From contig JAACWQ010000004.1 of the NCBI GenBank assembly GCA_009991965.1, positions 1-40,073 of the forward strand: a stretch of DNA of 40,073 nucleotides. The letters are read 5' to 3'. The notes under the pieces are model-generated. The model had not been told where the DNA came from. It did not search any database and was given only the letters and a program-made list of their open reading frames with translations. This document shows, one piece after another, positions 26,277 through 34,597 of this stretch. Source of the DNA: Minisyncoccota bacterium. Its GTDB lineage: Bacteria; Patescibacteriota; Microgenomatia; UBA1400; PJMF01. Each line of letters starts with the position of its first letter. Position 1 is the stretch's first letter. The translations under genes and the position numbers were made by a program.

Positions 26277-27506
26277 TCAAATCCTTACATCAAAATTGGC
26301 AACAATGGTCGCTAGATCATCGGCATTTATAACACAGTCCCCGATTTGGTTGTACGCACAGTTTTGCTGCATATAATACTGATAATCCAAGTTGTAATCA
26401 AAAATGTCAACTTGATTATCTTTATTTAGATCCCCCAGCAAAGGAATCGGACTAGGTGAAGGGGTTGGTGTGGGAAAAGGTGTGGGAACTGGAGTTGGAA
26501 TTGGGGTTGGCAACGGTTGCGGACAATACCGAGTAGCGTAATCATGAAACACTGTGTATGTCGGCCTTTTTCTACCCGTCGCATCAATCAGTCCCATTCT
26601 CAAAGTGTCTGCAAAATCCATAACTGTATGAAATGACGCGATCTCAACAAATGAGAACTCGTTTGAAAGCAAACGATCAAACGTTTGACGCAAATAATCC
26701 GCTGCCTCATTTTCTGAAATGCTATGTTCGTAGCCCTGGGCGACATTCCACCCATACTCAGTCATCCAAATCGGTTTGTGATATTTTTCGTACATGTGCT
26801 TAACACCATCTAAATTGGCTGGACCAAACCAGTTGTACGGATGCAAAGTCATCACATCATACGATCTCCCGCCAGGACTATTGTGCAATACGTCCATAAA
26901 TCCTTCATCGTTTCCGTCTAGTCCACCCACAGAAAGCTGAATCTGAGGATTTATTGCTTTTAAAGTTTTGTAGGTGACATCGAGCCAGTATGCATACTCT
27001 CGCACTGACTCTTCAGTATTTCTGCAGCCGTCCACATTCGAACCACAGCCATTTTGTTCATTCCAAAAAATATATCGATTCACCTGAGGATGCCTGGTAG
27101 CAAGAGCACGAATAAATTGTTCGTAATCTGCTTGTGCGTCTCGTCTCGGCAAAGCTTTGTGTGGTGGTAAATTACCCTCCTTTGCCCAATCAGGAGTACA
27201 ACAAATCATCACAGTATTACCTAAATTTCTGGCCTCAGCTTGCGCTAAAGTCGAGTCAAAAAGGCTGAAATCAATTGCGCCTCGAGTTGGCTCGGCAATA
27301 TCCCAATTTACGGCCAAACCCACGTAGGTAGCGCCAGCTTCCTGAATTGCTGCATAAACAGCGGGTTCATCCGTAGCTTTGTTGAGACCAAACAGCAGCG
27401 GACGAGTTGTGTTTTGGCAAGTTGGATCAGCTGCGCAAACGGGTGAGACTAGATATAACAAGCAAAAAAATACTGAGAACAATAAAATGCCTGTCAATCG
27501 TTTCAT
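26277..27506 (-). CDS. Secreted clan GH-A glycoside hydrolase + Pro/Thr linker + dockerin-like domain (paralog 2)
   Basis: Signal peptide, WNEQN (acid/base Glu), HPY, WMTEYGW (nucleophile Glu), PTPIPTP linker, GDLNKDNQVDIFDY and GDCVINADDL..IVANF. Confidence 0.85.
   Translation of the reverse strand: MKRLTGILLFSVFFCLLYLVSPVCAADPTCQNTTRPLLFGLNKATDEPAVYAAIQEAGATYVGLAVNWDIAEPTRGAIDFSLFDSTLAQAEARNLGNTVMICCTPDWAKEGNLPPHKALPRRDAQADYEQFIRALATRHPQVNRYIFWNEQNGCGSNVDGCRNTEESVREYAYWLDVTYKTLKAINPQIQLSVGGLDGNDEGFMDVLHNSPGGRSYDVMTLHPYNWFGPANLDGVKHMYEKYHKPIWMTEYGWNVAQGYEHSISENEAADYLRQTFDRLLSNEFSFVEIASFHTVMDFADTLRMGLIDATGRKRPTYTVFHDYATRYCPQPLPTPIPTPVPTPFPTPTPSPSPIPLLGDLNKDNQVDIFDYNLDYQYYMQQNCAYNQIGDCVINADDLATIVANFDVRI
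26428..26447. repeat. 20-bp identical segment shared by the two GH paralogs (second copy 27718-27737)
   Basis: AGATCCCCCAGCAAAGGAAT at the linker/dockerin junction in both genes. Confidence 0.85.
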
Positions 27507-27566
27507 AAGAAAAATTGTAATCTGGTTGGGTACAGACCACAAGCACAACCGAAGTTGCTGTGGCCT

Positions 27567-28790
27567 TCAAATCCACATATCAAAATTGGCAACAATTGCT
27601 CCAACGTCATCTGCGTCTATCATACAGTCTCCAACTAGATTGTAAGCACAGTTTTCTTGCGAGAAATACTGATACAACAAATTGTAGTCAAAGATATCTA
27701 CCAGGTTGTTTCTATCAAGATCCCCCAGCAAAGGAATTGGAGTTGGCGTGGGGGTATGTATTGGGGCTGTAGGAATAGGAGTGGGGGTAGGTTGTGGACA
27801 AAGACGGGTGGCAAAATTTTGAAATACCGAATACCACGGTCGCTTATTTCCGTTGTTGTCAATCAGTCCCATTGCAGGGTCACTAGAAAAGTCTCCCATC
27901 GTGTGAAAAAAGGCTGCCGTCACAAAAGAAAATTCATCAGAGGTCAATCTTTGGAGTGTTGCCGACAAATACTCTGCTCCCTGTGCTTCTGTACTTGAAG
28001 TGTCTGCGCCCGGCATAACATTCCAACCGTACTCAGTGATCCAAATAGGTTTTTGTACAATTTGATATAAATGCTTGACGCTATCGAGATCGGCTGCACC
28101 ATGCCAACTGTATGGATGGATTGAAAACACATCATAGGAGTGCCCACCAGGACTGTTGTGCAAACGATCGACAAATGCATCATCCATACGATCCAAACCG
28201 CCTACTGAGAGTTGTATCGATGGGTCAACACCTTTGAGTGCTGAATAGGTGACGTCAAGCCAATAGGCGTACTCTCTCACAGAGTCATCCGTATTACCGC
28301 AGCCGCCTGCGCTAGAACCGCAACCATTTTGCTCATTCCAAAACTCATATCGCTTGATTTGAGGGTACCGTCTCGCTGCTGTCTGAATAAAACGTACGTA
28401 CTCTTGAGCAAACTCGCGCTTTGGCAAAGCTTGGTGCGCAGGAAGACCTCCTTCTTTTGCCCAGGCTGGCGTACCAGTGATAAGTACTGTCAATGCAAGC
28501 TTATATTTCTCTGCTTCCTTTGTGTCTGCGTCCAATTGCGCAAAATTATACGTGCCATGATTCCTTTCAGATAAATCCCAATTGAGCACTAATTTTGTTG
28601 CGGTTCCTCCTACATTGCTGATTGCCTGATACATGTTGCCGACATTTCCCCCAGGATTAATGCCAAATAACAACGGGCGACTAAAATTTTGGCACGTCGG
28701 ATCTGCGGCTGTTACCGAAGGTATTTTTGAGATAGAGAAAAAAACAATCGAAACAAAAACTAAAACGCCGGAAAAAAGTATAAATTTCAT
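27567..28790 (-). CDS. Secreted clan GH-A glycoside hydrolase + Pro/Thr linker + dockerin-like domain (paralog 1)
   Basis: Signal/anchor, WNEQN, HPY, WITEYGW, PTPTP linker, GDLDRNNLVDIFDY and GDCMIDADDV..IVANF. Confidence 0.85.
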   Translation of the reverse strand: MKFILFSGVLVFVSIVFFSISKIPSVTAADPTCQNFSRPLLFGINPGGNVGNMYQAISNVGGTATKLVLNWDLSERNHGTYNFAQLDADTKEAEKYKLALTVLITGTPAWAKEGGLPAHQALPKREFAQEYVRFIQTAARRYPQIKRYEFWNEQNGCGSSAGGCGNTDDSVREYAYWLDVTYSALKGVDPSIQLSVGGLDRMDDAFVDRLHNSPGGHSYDVFSIHPYSWHGAADLDSVKHLYQIVQKPIWITEYGWNVMPGADTSSTEAQGAEYLSATLQRLTSDEFSFVTAAFFHTMGDFSSDPAMGLIDNNGNKRPWYSVFQNFATRLCPQPTPTPIPTAPIHTPTPTPIPLLGDLDRNNLVDIFDYNLLYQYFSQENCAYNLVGDCMIDADDVGAIVANFDMWI

Positions 28791-28851
28791 CACAAAAAAA
28801 TTGTAGGCGAGTTGGGCGCTGATCACAAGGAGGGGGTGTTATTGTACAGTG

Positions 28852-29477
28852 TTACGGGCGCCAGTTCGCGCGGCCAACTTTAGAAACTTCTTGCATATAC
28901 CTCTCATATGCTAGCTTATCATCCTCTCCTAAAATTCGAGCCCAAATTCCTGGGAGGTCGCGATTTAACTCGCTTGAATCAATACCAAAGCCTTCAACCC
29001 AAATGAGTAGCGGCGTTTTGAAACCAATCCAAACTTCTTGAGCAAGTTTGAAAAATAAGTTTTCCTCAGACACATCAACTTTGGCCAATAAAACAGCCAG
29101 CTGTAGCGAACAAGGTTCCAGCGAAGCAACAAAGATCAAAATTTTCTTTAAAGTCTCTCCTGAATCAATAATATCATCCATTACAAGCACATGTGCTCCC
29201 TCAATAAGATGAGGTTTTTTGATCGGCTCAACAAGAGGTTCTCCCGTGGCAACCAAGTTTTGCCCATAGCTACTTGCAGAAATATCATCTATTGTCGTGC
29301 GCACACCAAGTTTATACAGGTCTATCTGTAAAAAAGTTGCAAACACTCATCATCATTCGACCTAACTTTTTTAAAGTTATTTGCTATTTCCCCGGCCAAC
29401 TCAGTAATTCTTTGCAAGACTACCTCATGTGGGATCAAAATTTTGGATTCTCCGGGAAGCTCTGAGTGTTTCGGCAC
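28852..29477 (-). pseudogene. hpt: Disrupted hypoxanthine/purine phosphoribosyltransferase (hpt-like)
   Basis: N-part 29477-29322 (MPKHSELPGESKILIPHEVVLQRITELAGEIANNF...*) and C-part 29346-28852 (ASSYG, VLVMDDIIDSGETL, GFGID..RDLP) are in different frames; the 'vgilkGa' strand is missing. Confidence 0.75.
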
Positions 29478-29644
29478 AAAAACTATTATAAACTATATCA
29501 AAAGCCTCTAAGTCGGCTGCAGAAAAGTAGTTGTTTTATCTTCGCTGGAGGTTTCAACTGTTCCCGAAATGGGAATGGTTGAGAAATTTACAAGCTATTA
29601 GTTCGGCCTCTGTTTGAGCTGCTAAGTTTTACCTAACACTTGAA

Positions 29645-29848
29645 CTATAGAAACGAGCCACTTGTTTTTCTTACCCTGTCTTTGGCTTCAGAATGCCGAA
29701 CATATAGGCTCATCAAATAGTCATGTCTCTCAAGTACATAGATATACTCACCAATGGATTCGTTATAGCTTACTCCACCAACAGTAAAAGTCTTTCCTTC
29801 ATAACGAACAGAGTCGCCTTTCTCGAACAATGGTAAGTCTTTAGGCAA
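29645..29848 (-). CDS. Small hypothetical protein (67 aa, SH3/KOW-like beta pattern)
   Basis: GAGGT SD before TTG, 15 nt after the helicase stop; FEKGDSVRY...V.GV......Y.Y.L pattern. Confidence 0.55.
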   Translation of the reverse strand: MPKDLPLFEKGDSVRYEGKTFTVGGVSYNESIGEYIYVLERHDYLMSLYVRHSEAKDRVRKTSGSFL

Positions 29849-29863
29849 TTATGACCTCACTTT

Positions 29864-31702
29864 CTATAAAGAACCCCTCATATCCTCAAAATGCTTTCTC
29901 GTCTCTTCGTCCAAGAAGTAAACATATACTCCCTTATGAGCTCTCGACATCAAAACTCTATAAACATTCTTTAGATGCTCCTCTATCTGCTTATTTCCTC
30001 GCTTTACCATACTATCAAAAGACTTGTCTGGTTGGGCAATCCAGCCTTTGTTCTCTCGCCAAACTAGATCATCGCCAAAGATTACAGCAATATAATCAAA
30101 CTCAAAACCTTGTGCTGTATACACCGTTCCAACTTGTTCCATACCTGATTCGTCTGTTGCCCACTTCCAAAAATCTTTCTTGTGCTCCCACGGCATTGCA
30201 AAGTCACCAATCACCACATCGCTTACTAGCTGACCATTTTTTAGCGGATCACTCCAAGTCCAGCAGAAGCCTGCCACAATTCTGGCTGAGTTATGTTTTT
30301 CCTTATTTCTCAGCCTGACTTGTTCCATCATTGTCGTGGGTTTATCAAAAATTTTAAACTCCATTTTTGTATCAAACTGCATAATTTCAGATTCTTGAAT
30401 TCCCAGTGCAGCGTCCAACCACTGTAAGTATGAGTCTGAACCGCTGCATCTAAACTGAGTTTCCAGTTGGTACTCAAATACCTTTGCTCCAAATTTTTTC
30501 GCTGATTGTTTAATCAAGTCCACACTGCCAATTTCTGTGGGTCGTACAACCTGTCGCTCATCAATAAAAAAAATGGAAATTTTTGCAGGAGAAATCAAAT
30601 CGTCAATCTGAGGATTCTTTGACTTGAACATGAAAGGAACTCCCCAATCATTACTGTGTGCTCTAAGTCTATGCGCCTCATCACAAATCAAGACATCAAT
30701 AGAATTTTCTTCATTTTTAGTAAAACTATAAAAATATTTGAAAAACATTGAGGATCTCGTGCCAGCAATTTTTCTGAAAGTTTTTGTTAGCGCAGAAGAA
30801 CCAGTCGCATAAAAGGTGGTAAGGCCTTTTCGCATCAGCTGAACCATGGTCTCAAGTGCAATTACTGACTTACCAGTCCCCGGCCCACCTCTCACAATTA
30901 TTACGCTTTTTATTTTTTCCTTTGAGAGCCGACTCACCTGATCCTTGATTGCGTTGTAGGCAGCAATCTGCTCATCGATAAGATTGAATACTTGTTGACC
31001 TCTAATCATATGACCAAATTCCTCTAAGAGTCTTTTTGATGGTCTAACCTTACTAGAATCGAATCTTGCCAACACAGCAGAACCTTTTCCATTGAGCATG
31101 TGGTGCTTGAGATATTCGCCCAATTGAGCAACCTGCCCCTTAGTAAATAGTGGGAAGCGGGCCAAGTCTGTCTGATACTCAGAGTTAAGTAGCGGATCAT
31201 CATTTTCATTTTGAACATAATTGTGGCAATACACACATGCTCGAAGCAGTAGAGGATCTTTTTCTTCAAAAACACTGTACGAATCCTCCATCTCCCGCAC
31301 ATATGCTTCAACCTGAACTGAAGGATGTGCTACCTCTCTAAATCTGCCCGCAATCGGTGTCGACACATTTCCAACTATTTCAGTCTTATGTACCTCAGTC
31401 CATTGTTTTAACTCAACAATCACTGAAGAGTCTTGTGCTTGAGTGTTTTTTGCAAAAAGTAAGACATCAATCCTCTTTGCGGTAAAAGGCAACTCATGCT
31501 CTACAGCAATATGAAAGTCATTTAGCGACACTATATCCAAGGAATCTTTCACGAACCGTAGCGAGTTGTACCACGAACGATATTCGCCTGGACCAACCTT
31601 TCTGCGATAATAATCAGAATATGATTGCGCCAATTGATCGGCGATGGTGTTGTTCATGACATCAAAACGGAAATCTGAAGCTGAAGCTGAATATAATCTC
31701 AT
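29864..31702 (-). CDS. DUF2075-like (Schlafen group 3-type) SF1 helicase with N-terminal PD-(D/E)xK-like nuclease domain
   Basis: E...RIDVLL...VIVELKQW; Walker A GGPGTGKS; Walker B ICDEAH; QFRC; YTAQGFEFDY; YRVLMSRA. Confidence 0.85.
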   Translation of the reverse strand: MRLYSASASDFRFDVMNNTIADQLAQSYSDYYRRKVGPGEYRSWYNSLRFVKDSLDIVSLNDFHIAVEHELPFTAKRIDVLLFAKNTQAQDSSVIVELKQWTEVHKTEIVGNVSTPIAGRFREVAHPSVQVEAYVREMEDSYSVFEEKDPLLLRACVYCHNYVQNENDDPLLNSEYQTDLARFPLFTKGQVAQLGEYLKHHMLNGKGSAVLARFDSSKVRPSKRLLEEFGHMIRGQQVFNLIDEQIAAYNAIKDQVSRLSKEKIKSVIIVRGGPGTGKSVIALETMVQLMRKGLTTFYATGSSALTKTFRKIAGTRSSMFFKYFYSFTKNEENSIDVLICDEAHRLRAHSNDWGVPFMFKSKNPQIDDLISPAKISIFFIDERQVVRPTEIGSVDLIKQSAKKFGAKVFEYQLETQFRCSGSDSYLQWLDAALGIQESEIMQFDTKMEFKIFDKPTTMMEQVRLRNKEKHNSARIVAGFCWTWSDPLKNGQLVSDVVIGDFAMPWEHKKDFWKWATDESGMEQVGTVYTAQGFEFDYIAVIFGDDLVWRENKGWIAQPDKSFDSMVKRGNKQIEEHLKNVYRVLMSRAHKGVYVYFLDEETRKHFEDMRGSL

Positions 31703-31711
31703 CTGTGATAG

Positions 31712-32059
31712 TTATAACCTAGAGTACTTGGTGTGCTTGCCTTTTGCTTTTGAAATAGGATATTTTTTTTCATTAATTATTAGTTTTCTTCTCAGAGCCT
31801 CCGATACATCAATACCAAAATCATTTGCCATCAGCAAAACCCAATAAAAAACATCTGCTAACTCTTCGCCAATTTCTTGCTTGTGACTGCGCAAGTATGC
31901 AGTTAGTTCTTGCTCATTCTTCCACTGGAAATGTTCTGCTAATTCTGATAATTCCAACAAAAGTGAAATTACTAGGTCTTTTGGCGTGTGAAATTGCTTC
32001 CAATCCCGTTGATCACGAAATTTTATAATTTGTTTAGTTAGGTCTTGTATATCTGACAT
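31712..32059 (-). CDS. MazG-like nucleotide pyrophosphohydrolase (dCTP pyrophosphatase-like)
   Basis: FRDQRDWKQFHTPKDL, ELSELAEHFQW, EELADV (ExxE...ExxD), KKYP. Confidence 0.9.
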   Translation of the reverse strand: MSDIQDLTKQIIKFRDQRDWKQFHTPKDLVISLLLELSELAEHFQWKNEQELTAYLRSHKQEIGEELADVFYWVLLMANDFGIDVSEALRRKLIINEKKYPISKAKGKHTKYSRL

Positions 32060-32086
32060 GATCAAATTCTACTCCAATCGCAGAAA

Positions 32087-32709: not shown

Positions 32710-34136
32710 TAGCCGATGCTCCCTGCCATCTCGTGATCGATGAGTCGATTCATCTCAACCGCGTACTCCAATGGTAGTTTTTTGATCAAATCACCGATAA
32801 AGCCATGCACGATCATTTTGCGAGCAGCTTCTTCGTTGACGCCACGACTCATGAGGTAGAACAACTGCTCGTCGCCAATTTTGGAGACTGTTGCTTCGTG
32901 CTGGATTGCTACATCAGAAGCGAACACTTTATCGACTGGATAGGTATCTGAGCGCGACTCTGGGTCGAGCAAAAGCGCGTCGCAAATGACTGAGTTTTGG
33001 CTGTGATGGGCCTTGGGCCCAACAGAAACTAGACCGCGGTAGCTCGTGCGGCCACCATTTTTACTAATAGATTTTGAGACAATTGTGGAGCTCGTATACG
33101 GTGCCAAGTGAATCGCCTTGCTGCCGGTATCCTGGTGTTGTCCCTCGCCCGCTAGCGCCATGCTGAGGGTCTCACCCCTGGCACCTTTACCCGCCAGGAT
33201 GAAACTCGGATACTTCATGGTCACTTTGGAACCCATATTGAAATCCGTCCAGATCATTTCGCCTTCGGTCTCTACGCGAGCGCGTTTGGTGACGAGGTTA
33301 TAGACATTTTTGTACCAGTTTTGAATGGTAGTATATTGGCAGCGTGCGCCAGCTTTGACATAAATCTCGACGACTGCGGAATGGAGCGAGCCGCTCGAGA
33401 AACTTGGTGCTGTACAACCTTCTACATAATGCACTTTTGCCCCTTCATCAACGATAATCAGTGTGCGCTCAAACTGGCCAGCATTAGGAGAGTTGATGCG
33501 AAAATACGTTTGGAGCGGCAGCTGGACGTTGACGCCTTTTGGAATATAGACAAATGAACCACCCGACCAAACTGCGGAATTCAATGCCGCGAAAGTATTA
33601 TCGCCGCTCGGGATCAATTTGCCAAAGTATTCTTTGACCAAATCAGGATACTGCGCCAAACCCTCATCCATCGAGAGAAAAATGACGCCGTCTTTGGCGT
33701 AAGCAGCTTTGAGTGAGCCGTAGACAACTTCGCTGTCGTACTGGGCTTTGACGCCTGCCAAGACGCCACGCTCTGCTTCTGGAATGCCGAGTTTATCGAA
33801 AGTTGCTTTGACCTCTGGTGGCACGTCGTCCCAAGATTTTGACGGCGCATCGGTTGGCTTCAGGTAGTAATGAATGTCCTCAAATGCAATGGCCGACAAA
33901 TCTGCACCCCAAGGTGGCAACTGCATGTGCTCGTATTGCTCAAACGCTTTTAGACGCAGCTGGTGCATCCAGTCTGGCTCGTCTTTCATCGACGAAATTT
34001 CTTCTACTACCCATTTTGATAATCCAGGCTTGGCAATATGCTTGTAACTCGCCGTCGAAGAAAAGTACCCATGCTCATAGTTGGTGTCTTGACTTGGAGT
34101 AAAGGCGGTGGTGTTTTTCTGCGCAAACCGAGCCAT
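32709..34136 (-). CDS. sufB: Fe-S cluster assembly protein SufB
   Basis: LGIPEAE, AQYDSEVVY, ALNSAVWSGGSF, GQFERTLI, YVEGCTAP, LHSAVVE, TMKYPS, HEATVSKI, LPLEYAVE. Confidence 0.97.
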   Translation of the reverse strand: MARFAQKNTTAFTPSQDTNYEHGYFSSTASYKHIAKPGLSKWVVEEISSMKDEPDWMHQLRLKAFEQYEHMQLPPWGADLSAIAFEDIHYYLKPTDAPSKSWDDVPPEVKATFDKLGIPEAERGVLAGVKAQYDSEVVYGSLKAAYAKDGVIFLSMDEGLAQYPDLVKEYFGKLIPSGDNTFAALNSAVWSGGSFVYIPKGVNVQLPLQTYFRINSPNAGQFERTLIIVDEGAKVHYVEGCTAPSFSSGSLHSAVVEIYVKAGARCQYTTIQNWYKNVYNLVTKRARVETEGEMIWTDFNMGSKVTMKYPSFILAGKGARGETLSMALAGEGQHQDTGSKAIHLAPYTSSTIVSKSISKNGGRTSYRGLVSVGPKAHHSQNSVICDALLLDPESRSDTYPVDKVFASDVAIQHEATVSKIGDEQLFYLMSRGVNEEAARKMIVHGFIGDLIKKLPLEYAVEMNRLIDHEMAGSIG

Positions 34137-34597
34137 CAGATGTTACTCCGGCTCAAAATTTGGCGAATAAGTCCATTGGTCTCACCAGCAAAACCAAAAT
34201 CATAGAGAGCAATCTCGGCAAAAGAAACCCAAGCAAACTCAGTGTGCTCAGCACTCATACGTACTTTTTGCAGCCCGGACAATGCAACTTTCCAGCCAAC
34301 AATGAGCGTATAAAGTTGCTTCTCTCCGTCAAAGTAGGTGTCAAAAAAAATCGGTCGCGTAAACATGCTATCGGCCAAAGAAATTCCAGTCTCTTCCAAG
34401 ATTTCTCGCGTAATATCTGCTTGGTGTAAACTCCGCTCTGTCTGTTTTGATTGTGGCCACTCACTATTACCGCCTGGCAAATCCCATTGACCAGCGCGAG
34501 TTGCACTGTCATCTGCCCGCTTGAGAATCAAGACTCTGTTGTCTGCGACCAGCGCGGCTTTTTGTAAAACTTTTACTGTGTCTGTTAGTTGATGCAT
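34136..34597 (-). CDS. NUDIX hydrolase (Nudix box with insertion)
   Basis: LILKR, WDLPGG..E...REILEETG, SAEHTEFAWV. Confidence 0.85.
   Translation of the reverse strand: MHQLTDTVKVLQKAALVADNRVLILKRADDSATRAGQWDLPGGNSEWPQSKQTERSLHQADITREILEETGISLADSMFTRPIFFDTYFDGEKQLYTLIVGWKVALSGLQKVRMSAEHTEFAWVSFAEIALYDFGFAGETNGLIRQILSRSNI

Follow-up and report, generated by a model that had tools for sequence, protein, structure and literature searches.

The question raised by a 40,073-nucleotide (nt) stretch of the genome of a Minisyncoccota bacterium (assembly GCA_009991965.1, contig JAACWQ010000004.1, positions 1 to 40,073), hereafter the window, is why a gene for a small MazG-like pyrophosphatase and a gene for a 612-amino-acid (aa) nuclease-helicase stand side by side inside its suf cluster, and whether the two work together. 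The window is contig C15 of a 26-contig, 854-kb genome, whose completeness is rated at ~94%. Three co-oriented open reading frames (ORFs) lie on its minus strand between sufD and sufS, at 31712-32065 (117 aa, MazG-like), 29864-31702 (612 aa) and 29645-29848 (67 aa), separated by 9 nt and then by 15 nt. This tightly packed trio, interrupting the suf operon, had been described in an earlier reading of the letters alone (the sequence-only reading), and its coordinates and gaps hold, as does the remark that it is AT-richer than the flanking suf genes: the GC content is 0.396 for the trio, 0.347 for the MazG-like gene and 0.406 for the helicase gene, vs 0.47-0.50 for the suf genes (sufB 0.499, sufS 0.490, sufC 0.476, with sufD within that range) and 0.45 for the whole window. 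We consider it probable that the first two of these genes constitute a two-gene anti-phage (anti-mobile-DNA) defence module; what we infer from the observations that follow is the defence role itself and the substrates of the two enzymes, as well as any coupling of the two, physical or regulatory.

The larger protein joins a putative nuclease domain to a helicase. Its aa 236-612 (29864..30997, minus strand) form a linker and a DUF2075 / Schlafen-group-3 helicase domain of superfamily 1B (SF1B): aa 265-598 match PF09848 (DUF2075 / SLFN-g3 helicase) over profile positions 1-354 with an E-value (E) of 1.2e-83 and 281.8 bits, against a cut-off of 24, and a genome profile search puts the same match at 29909-30910. 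The motifs GGPGTGKS (Walker A), CDEAHR, QVVRP, QFRC, VYTAQGFEFDY and VLMSRA show little or no variation across 23 sequences, which places the domain in SF1B and bears out the intact Walker A/B and SF1 motifs that had been read from the window protein by itself. An AF2 model of the full-length protein (predicted local distance difference test, pLDDT, 78.6) matched DSH9, RecD2, SLFN11, RecD, Dda, Nsp13 and Dna2 in Foldseek, with E 1e-8 to 1e-11 for RecD2, Dda, DSH9, RecD, Nsp13 and Dna2; when the helicase profile was run against the sequences of solved structures, only a P-loop match to HelD came back. The N-terminal domain (aa 1-235; 30998..31702, minus strand), folded alone from 44 sequences, reached a pLDDT of 95.8, and Foldseek and VIA-align retrieved for it almost only nucleases of the restriction-endonuclease fold, among them VC1899, Cdn1, Can2, Upx, Card1, BpuSI, NucS and McrC. 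The best of these, VC1899, gave Z 8.1 and a root-mean-square deviation of 4.0 over 129 aligned residues, a Z near 8 being borderline when taken alone. E68, D79, E97 and K99 (E...D...ExK) are invariant in the 44 N-terminal domains, extending the D...ExK nuclease-like N-terminus of the sequence-only reading, and it is on this catalytic motif and the uniform list of structural matches together that we assign the domain, as predicted from alignment and model, to the PD-(D/E)xK nuclease superfamily.

The small protein (31712..32065, minus strand) belongs to the MazG-like family PF12643 (61.8 bits against a cut-off of 27, E 7.4e-17). Translation may begin at TTG 32065, giving 117 aa, or at ATG 32059, giving 115 aa, the latter fitting the N-termini of homologs better. 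Its nearest solved structures are an archaeal pyrophosphatase (4qgp, E 1.8e-19) and mouse/human DCTPP1/RS21-C6 (E 2.3e-18), all of the same all-alpha MazG-like fold family, and in the printed alignment it has the RDWxQFHxP, FQWK and ExxE...ExxD motifs in common with DCTPP1/RS21-C6. E36, E39, E66, D69 and K92 are invariant in an alignment of 48 sequences (the window protein and 47 partner-gene products from other loci), and because the four acidic residues E36, E39, E66 and D69 never vary, the metal-binding ExxE...ExxD site, already noted as intact in the single protein, is to be regarded as such on alignment grounds. Unlike DCTPP1, the window protein is prokaryotic, stand-alone and ~115 aa long, and is encoded in an operon with a nuclease-helicase; a dCTP substrate is suggested by homology only. 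We therefore describe it as DCTPP1-like by homology, with a predicted dCTP-type pyrophosphatase activity.

How constant is the pairing of these two genes? An alignment-seeded scan, restricted to one genome per species, yielded 80 helicase loci from many bacterial phyla as well as from Woesearchaeota, Micrarchaeota, Methanosarcinales, Thermoplasmata and Thaumarchaeota, with full-length identities of 36-56%. Of the 80, 55 carry a MazG-like gene. In 43 loci this gene immediately precedes the helicase gene on the same strand, at a distance of 120 nt or less; it is directly downstream on the same strand in five (including L044, where it stands behind a longer form of the gene), adjacent on the opposite strand in three, and 0.75-2.7 kb upstream in four. 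The 43 immediate same-strand pairs overlap or are separated by a few nt, and adjacency is retained where gene order flips in Actinomycetota. When the 972 ORFs of the 80 loci were clustered, the helicase and the MazG-like protein were the only widely recurring families. Even a homolog with a helicase just 24% identical, on a Bacillus thuringiensis plasmid, belongs to a trio annotated as nucleoside triphosphate (NTP) pyrophosphohydrolase, HNH endonuclease and helicase.

Two other gene types were seen beside some of these loci. An HNH_2 (PF13391) protein of ~320 aa adjoins the helicase in 13 of the 80 loci (e.g. L030:7980-8957, L040:8421-9386), often directly downstream, and on the B. thuringiensis plasmids the annotated HNH endonuclease gene sits between pyrophosphohydrolase and helicase (L129:4668-5717); the HNH-containing loci look like a three-gene variant of the cassette. 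A tetratricopeptide repeat (TPR) family precedes the helicase in five loci (L025, L026, L043, L044, L045), four of which have no MazG-like gene; the assignment comes from the longer member scanned, that of L044, and the shorter L045 member had no Pfam match. A TPR protein is also found on a Hymenobacter plasmid (L094:13118-15479), directly before a nucleotide pyrophosphohydrolase that lies 6 kb from the DUF2075 genes.

Within the phylum itself, an even sample of 401 genomes contained the nuclease domain in 14, of which 12, including the genome of the window, matched strongly (E<=1e-50). In all 11 other strong members a MazG-like gene is directly adjacent by coordinates, and three genomes of the same family encode helicases 36-37% identical to that of the window, each with a MazG-like gene directly upstream. 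Seeding from the other side, a DUF2075 helicase adjoins the MazG-like gene in 16 of the best 29 MazG-seeded loci of the phylum; 11 of these helicases belong to the window family and five (L099, L100, L123, L127, L128), which follow the MazG-like gene, begin with ~150-190 aa unlike the family nuclease domain, so that the pyrophosphatase also pairs with other DUF2075 architectures. The identities of paired proteins correlate (Pearson 0.31 over 41 pairs, with 0 of 2000 permutations as high), which indicates co-inheritance with some partner exchange. As a separate observation, the neighbours of helicase-less MazG-like loci include two N6/N4 DNA methylases, RadC, an NYN nuclease and a HAD hydrolase (L110:1860-3341, L115:585-1421, L107:1860-2522, L111:1898-2413), a possible sign that the pyrophosphatase subfamily is more broadly associated with genes for DNA modification.

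The distribution of the helicase is patchy, and crosses the domains of life. It was found in none of four genomes of the same genus and in three of 24 of the same family, and in a tree of 76 of the 81 rows (five were left out: L023, L033 and L049, which have no intact ORF, and L069 and L081, whose ORFs are <560 aa) bacteria and archaea are interleaved with no regard to taxonomy. The closest relatives of the window helicase are metagenome proteins (62-65% identity), and the relatives at 55-57% that carry an organism name come from Omnitrophota and Doudnabacteria. Homologs are found in 68 records of plasmids and four of phages. A Priestia aryabhattai plasmid (NZ_CP083270.1) has genes for a DUF3578 protein, a nucleotide pyrophosphohydrolase and a DUF2075 protein in a row, enclosed by a restriction endonuclease gene and by ABC-three-component and type I restriction-modification systems, and the Hymenobacter plasmid carries a restriction endonuclease and methyltransferase followed by two DUF2075 genes. 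For the 272 nearest neighbours (two per side), the 25 top PADLOC families include HNH (6+4), Cas4-like nucleases, restriction enzymes of types IV and I, PbeA, BrxP, SoFic and PDC-S02/S04/S05, and Pfam matches include RadC and a HIT-PLD-helicase-DUF3427 protein. The L044 locus, from a metagenome-assembled genome of Enterobacteriaceae, had no megablast match in complete E. coli genomes. Together, the data support a conserved, horizontally mobile two-gene module of MazG-like enzyme and nuclease-helicase with defence-like genomic behaviour.

A number of observations weigh against taking the pair as a functional unit of defence. In 24 of the 80 loci, in each of which the upstream flank is 400 nt or longer, no MazG-like gene lies within 6 kb (one more locus has too little flank), and well-supported branches of the helicase tree (SH-like approximate likelihood-ratio test, SH-aLRT, >=95) force at least 10 changes of the label 'none' (no MazG-like gene), including a whole Chloroflexia clade; for many family members the partner is thus dispensable. 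The MazG-like subfamily is commoner than the helicase (74 vs 14 of the 401 genomes), and 13 of the best 29 MazG-like loci adjoin genes other than a DUF2075 helicase, so that the MazG-like protein is not tied to the helicase alone and may serve in house-cleaning generally. At r 0.31, the identity correlation is modest and therefore implies partner shuffling. No fusion of MazG-like protein and helicase was seen in the 80 loci or among eight longer MazG-like proteins, the latter being weak evidence. No PADLOC model covers the family, the window protein being matched weakly by Nhi, AbiO and PDC-S41. Finally, since the neighbour counts come without a background control, we claim no defence enrichment; the neighbourhood analysis proposed with the sequence-only reading upholds co-localisation of the pair.

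The absence of a partner in many loci, the greater abundance of the MazG-like subfamily and its other neighbours would all be expected if the nuclease-helicase were a stand-alone Nhi-like defence and the MazG-like gene a co-travelling house-cleaner, mechanistically unlinked to it and useful to any mobile element or small genome. Precedent exists in Nhi (SERP2475 of Staphylococcus epidermidis), which combines nuclease and helicase, and in 'Nhi-like' (Millman et al. 2022), which was named for its N-terminal nuclease and DUF2075 with no sequence identity to Nhi; both are validated single-gene defences according to the respective preprints (10.1101/776245 and 10.1101/2022.05.11.491447). What such an arrangement explains poorly is immediate adjacency on the same strand in more than half of the loci and in both domains of life, kept through the order flip of Actinomycetota, as well as the pairing of every strong member of the phylum and its persistence on Bacillus plasmids at 24% helicase identity. 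Adjacency that withstands such rampant transfer points to selection acting on the pair, and we regard independent action of the two genes as unlikely.

Alternatively, the MazG-like enzyme might be a safety switch or regulator, either antitoxin-like or a nucleotide-signal hydrolase, which would hold a potentially self-toxic nuclease-helicase off until infection alters the nucleotide pools. Its gene lies upstream in an overlapping operon, as such a role would favour, and one Nhi homolog is recorded as toxic on expression in preprint 10.1101/776245. Control by a damage signal is further suggested by the long helicase forms of 11 of the 80 homologs (726-841 aa: L002:3094-3669, L004, L008, L021, L024, L025, L028, L040, L041, L044, L051), in which the C-terminal extension is a Peptidase_S24 (LexA/UmuD-like) domain, PF00717 being present in many database proteins of the helicase family of ~792 aa. 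Ten of the 11 long forms retain an Ala-Gly-type site along with the serine motif GxSM and the lysine motif TVK(R/K)Y, which we take to have the meanings that they have in LexA; by that analogy, the long-form nuclease-helicases may be regulated by RecA-stimulated self-cleavage. Many family members have no partner, however, and the MazG-like protein cannot therefore be an obligatory antitoxin, and in sequence it is closest to deoxynucleoside triphosphate (dNTP) house-cleaning enzymes, not to known signal hydrolases. We consider a switch of this kind distinctly unlikely. A complex prediction with two MazG-like copies and the helicase, for which alignments served as input, scored 0.00 vs a mark of 0.32, which is no answer and counts neither way.

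In the weakest alternative, the pair has no defence role and serves plasmids, phages and reduced genomes in repairing DNA or restarting replication, the nuclease-helicase acting like Dna2/RecD and its partner sanitising the nucleotide pool. This alternative can invoke a fold like that of RecD2, Dna2, Dda and Pif1, the guarding of genome integrity ascribed to DCTPP1-type enzymes in the literature, the homologs in phage records and the recurrence of RadC as a neighbour, but is very unlikely given the extremely patchy distribution (a strong match in 12 of 401 genomes), the mixing of bacteria and archaea in the tree, the presence of restriction-modification and other defence neighbours, and an architecture that is common to validated defence proteins.

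If the pair is a defence module, how does it relate to systems already known? Nuclease-helicase defences include Nhi, Gabija and Hachiman. Like Nhi and Nhi-like, as characterized in their preprints, the window protein unites an N-terminal nuclease and a DUF2075 (PF09848) SF1 helicase in one polypeptide, and its family resembles them in horizontal spread, plasmid-borne copies and defence-gene neighbours. In contrast, its sequence relation to Nhi is, as far as profile matches show, restricted to the helicase core: the PADLOC Nhi model matches aa 255-419 with 40.7 bits (model positions 193-330 of 470), and homologs of the window protein score 36-58 bits. Furthermore, Nhi and Nhi-like are described in those preprints as single-gene systems, a definition that does not fit here because the MazG-like partner is adjacent in the window and in most homolog loci, and the window family, usually with its DCTPP1-like partner, spans archaea and bacteria. 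Five homologs match PADLOC models weakly too, the family members L129, L002 and L031 all three of those named above, and L100, the DUF2075 variant with another N-terminus, only Nhi and AbiO. The best PADLOC match of the window protein is the candidate PDC-S41 (70.9 bits in three stretches, the best at aa 521-595); a distant Bacillus homolog matches model positions 6-258 in the N-terminal part and the window protein matches the C-terminal part, and since the two cover opposite ends of the model, PDC-S41 and the window family probably have the same overall architecture, as far as profile matches can tell. Unlike the window pair, PDC-S41 is a single-gene candidate, and 50-71 bits on a 657-position model is far under the level of family membership. 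The main text of the PADLOC preprint (10.1101/2024.01.29.577857) contains no PDC-S41, DUF2075, MazG or Nhi, and PMC13069673 no pyrophosph-, PF09848, PF12643 or Nhi term.

The group 3 Schlafen proteins (SLFN11, SLFN5, SLFN14) have a helicase domain of the same Pfam family, and the window protein has SLFN11 and SLFN14 near the top of its structural matches. Its N-terminus is a predicted PD-(D/E)xK nuclease, not a Schlafen core; beyond the P-loop match to HelD, no sequence-level match was found for the window helicase in the PDB. On the side of the small enzyme, dCTP deaminase and dGTPase are dNTP-depleting defences, with which the module would have in common a nucleotide-triphosphate-hydrolysing enzyme in a defence context, and MazG was reportedly predicted in conflict systems by Burroughs et al. 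in 2015. More recent sources treat MazG domains as predicted, unvalidated defence domains (PMC13092281), and MazG-like as a rare predicted effector replacement in PUA-Calcineurin-CE-HAD systems (10.64898/2026.01.15.699771). In the window, by contrast, the predicted NTP pyrophosphatase pairs with a DNA nuclease-helicase, not with PUA/HAD modules, and bulk depletion is hypothetical.

RefSeq labels the family members 'DUF2075 domain-containing protein' and 'nucleotide pyrophosphohydrolase'. The pair has no match to a named system in PADLOC-DB v2.0.0, and we found no publication describing a DUF2075-MazG pair, so that the sequence-only reading, which did not recognise it as a named system, stands in this respect; the supplementary candidate lists of PADLOC and DefensePredictor lay outside the search, and a catalogue entry is possible. 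The hidden Markov model searches that it had proposed likewise turned out in its favour, with DUF2075 and MazG-like both above their cut-offs. On the whole its observations were largely right and have been partly confirmed, and its interpretation, a system of two to three components, is supported in part, namely for the pair. The module, of two genes and not three, is probably a nuclease-helicase defence of the Nhi-like kind in which a dNTP pyrophosphatase is the conserved partner.

How might such a two-gene defence work? The large protein would be the effector, and probably also the sensor, in the manner of Nhi: it would load on foreign or aberrant DNA (e.g. replication intermediates), which it would then unwind at the expense of ATP and cleave. 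In the reading that we favour, the small DCTPP1-like partner would act on non-canonical pyrimidine dNTPs such as 5-modified dCTPs, hydrolysing them to dNMP and pyrophosphate, which could leave the phage unable to build modified, nuclease-resistant DNA, and could also bar modified nucleotides released from degraded DNA from re-entering the host DNA. In its most specific form, the proposal is a widespread immune module of bacteria and archaea, undescribed in the sources searched, in which the pyrophosphatase removes the modified pyrimidine dNTPs of phages (5-hydroxymethyl-/5-methyl-dCTP type) and the nuclease-helicase destroys the resulting unmodified DNA. This version we put forward tentatively and think doubtful. 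In general, the substrate preference proposed for the small enzyme is extrapolated from a eukaryotic homolog. If this version is true, the module would be directed specifically against one counter-defence of phages, base modification, and would be a prokaryotic setting where relatives of the eukaryotic genome guardians DCTPP1 and Schlafen helicases cooperate.

The insertion site itself is variable. G001 and G003, two genomes of the same genus, have the order sufC-nudix-sufB-sufD-hpt-sufS with no insert. G002 has a MazG-like gene, 89% identical to that of the window, right after sufD, and its contig then ends. In G004 the same site lacks the helicase-MazG pair and carries a 62%-identical copy of the 67-aa ORF beside sufD, with a cargo (L090, G004:C49, 8100-11900) of a 377-aa protein of no family, a MarR/LexA-like winged-helix protein, an N-terminal RhuM fragment and TspO. 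As the site is empty in two genomes and holds different cargo in G004, sufD-hpt is a variable hotspot in the genus. No att-like boundaries of the insert were identified, since the flanking repeats are short and look like chance. Contigs of other sequencing runs (DNA, fragmentary and of low depth) gave none joining across the island.

The 67-aa ORF (29645..29848, minus strand), proposed in the sequence-only reading as a small SH3-like third component, is a lineage-restricted neighbour of the module: it is present in none of the 80 homolog loci, and its independence of the pair follows from this and from the copy in G004, so that it was rejected as a component. It matched no Pfam, PADLOC or NCBIfam family, and a search of a 5.8-billion-protein collection returned only itself; its structural look-alikes in the Atlas, viral hypothetical proteins and small barrels of the CarD/TRCF-RID type (TM 0.75), are a lead only. 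A promoter of the trio's own was not recovered either: the TAGAAT hexamer read as a -10 box is present in the sequence, but the promoter scan did not call it, and the region has 2 promoter-like sites vs a mean of 6.8 in shuffles. GGAG is located 6 nt before TTG 32065, and because the hexamer lies between GGAG and the TTG start, it may simply be a ribosome-binding spacer. Rfam and tRNA scans of the region gave no match.

A supposed rhuM relic beside the trio was likewise ruled out, the neighbour being a frameshifted hpt. A six-frame genome search with PF13310 (RhuM) at E<=1 found matches only on contig C22, with none in the window, and tblastn of the RhuM fragment of G004 against the window gave a best E of 6.7. 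The hpt gene (hypoxanthine/guanine phosphoribosyltransferase; 28852-29477, minus strand) is split by the frameshift into ORFs of 51 aa and 164 aa. In another sequencing run (X3), a contig spanning 28652-29403 is identical to the window, which makes it unlikely that the break is an error confined to this assembly. The placement of hpt between sufD and sufS is shared by all four genomes of the genus with sufficient contig reach (G000, G001, G003, G004). In the interval from the 67-aa ORF to hpt, ~33 nt at 29547-29579 have a contig depth of 24-28 in runs X3 and X5, far above their surroundings, and contigs in X1, X3 and X4 diverge on one side of them; the element is single-copy in the genome, has no Rfam family or tRNA match, and resembles a CRISPR repeat or an otherwise shared short element.

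Further along the suf cluster, 26277-28826 (minus strand), between hpt and sufS, holds two ORFs of ~420 aa with alike N- and C-terminal stretches and Pro/Thr-rich linkers. One gene of this type is found at that place in G004 and none in G001 and G003, and the segment is a second insertion in the cluster. In G001 (C22:4309-6870; L089/L093), SufB matches in two parts (its residues 1-255 and 238-475) within a single 870-aa frame, from which follows an in-frame insertion of ~360 aa, possibly an intein. A NUDIX hydrolase gene between sufC and sufB (34136-34597 in the window, minus strand) is kept in all five compared genomes of the genus.

In the sources searched, we found no description of a conserved operon of a dNTP pyrophosphatase and a nuclease-helicase. 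If the pairing is functional, it would show nucleotide-pool editing combined with DNA degradation against phages, possibly those with modified bases, and would give a testable role to the MazG domain, which has so far only been predicted as defensive. The cassette is easy to test and broadly relevant, since it is small, is present in culturable hosts (Parageobacillus, Priestia, Paraburkholderia and Bacillus plasmids) and occurs in both prokaryotic domains. For the organism itself, it means that even a reduced genome of 854 kb carries mobile defence-type cargo, here inside its suf cluster.

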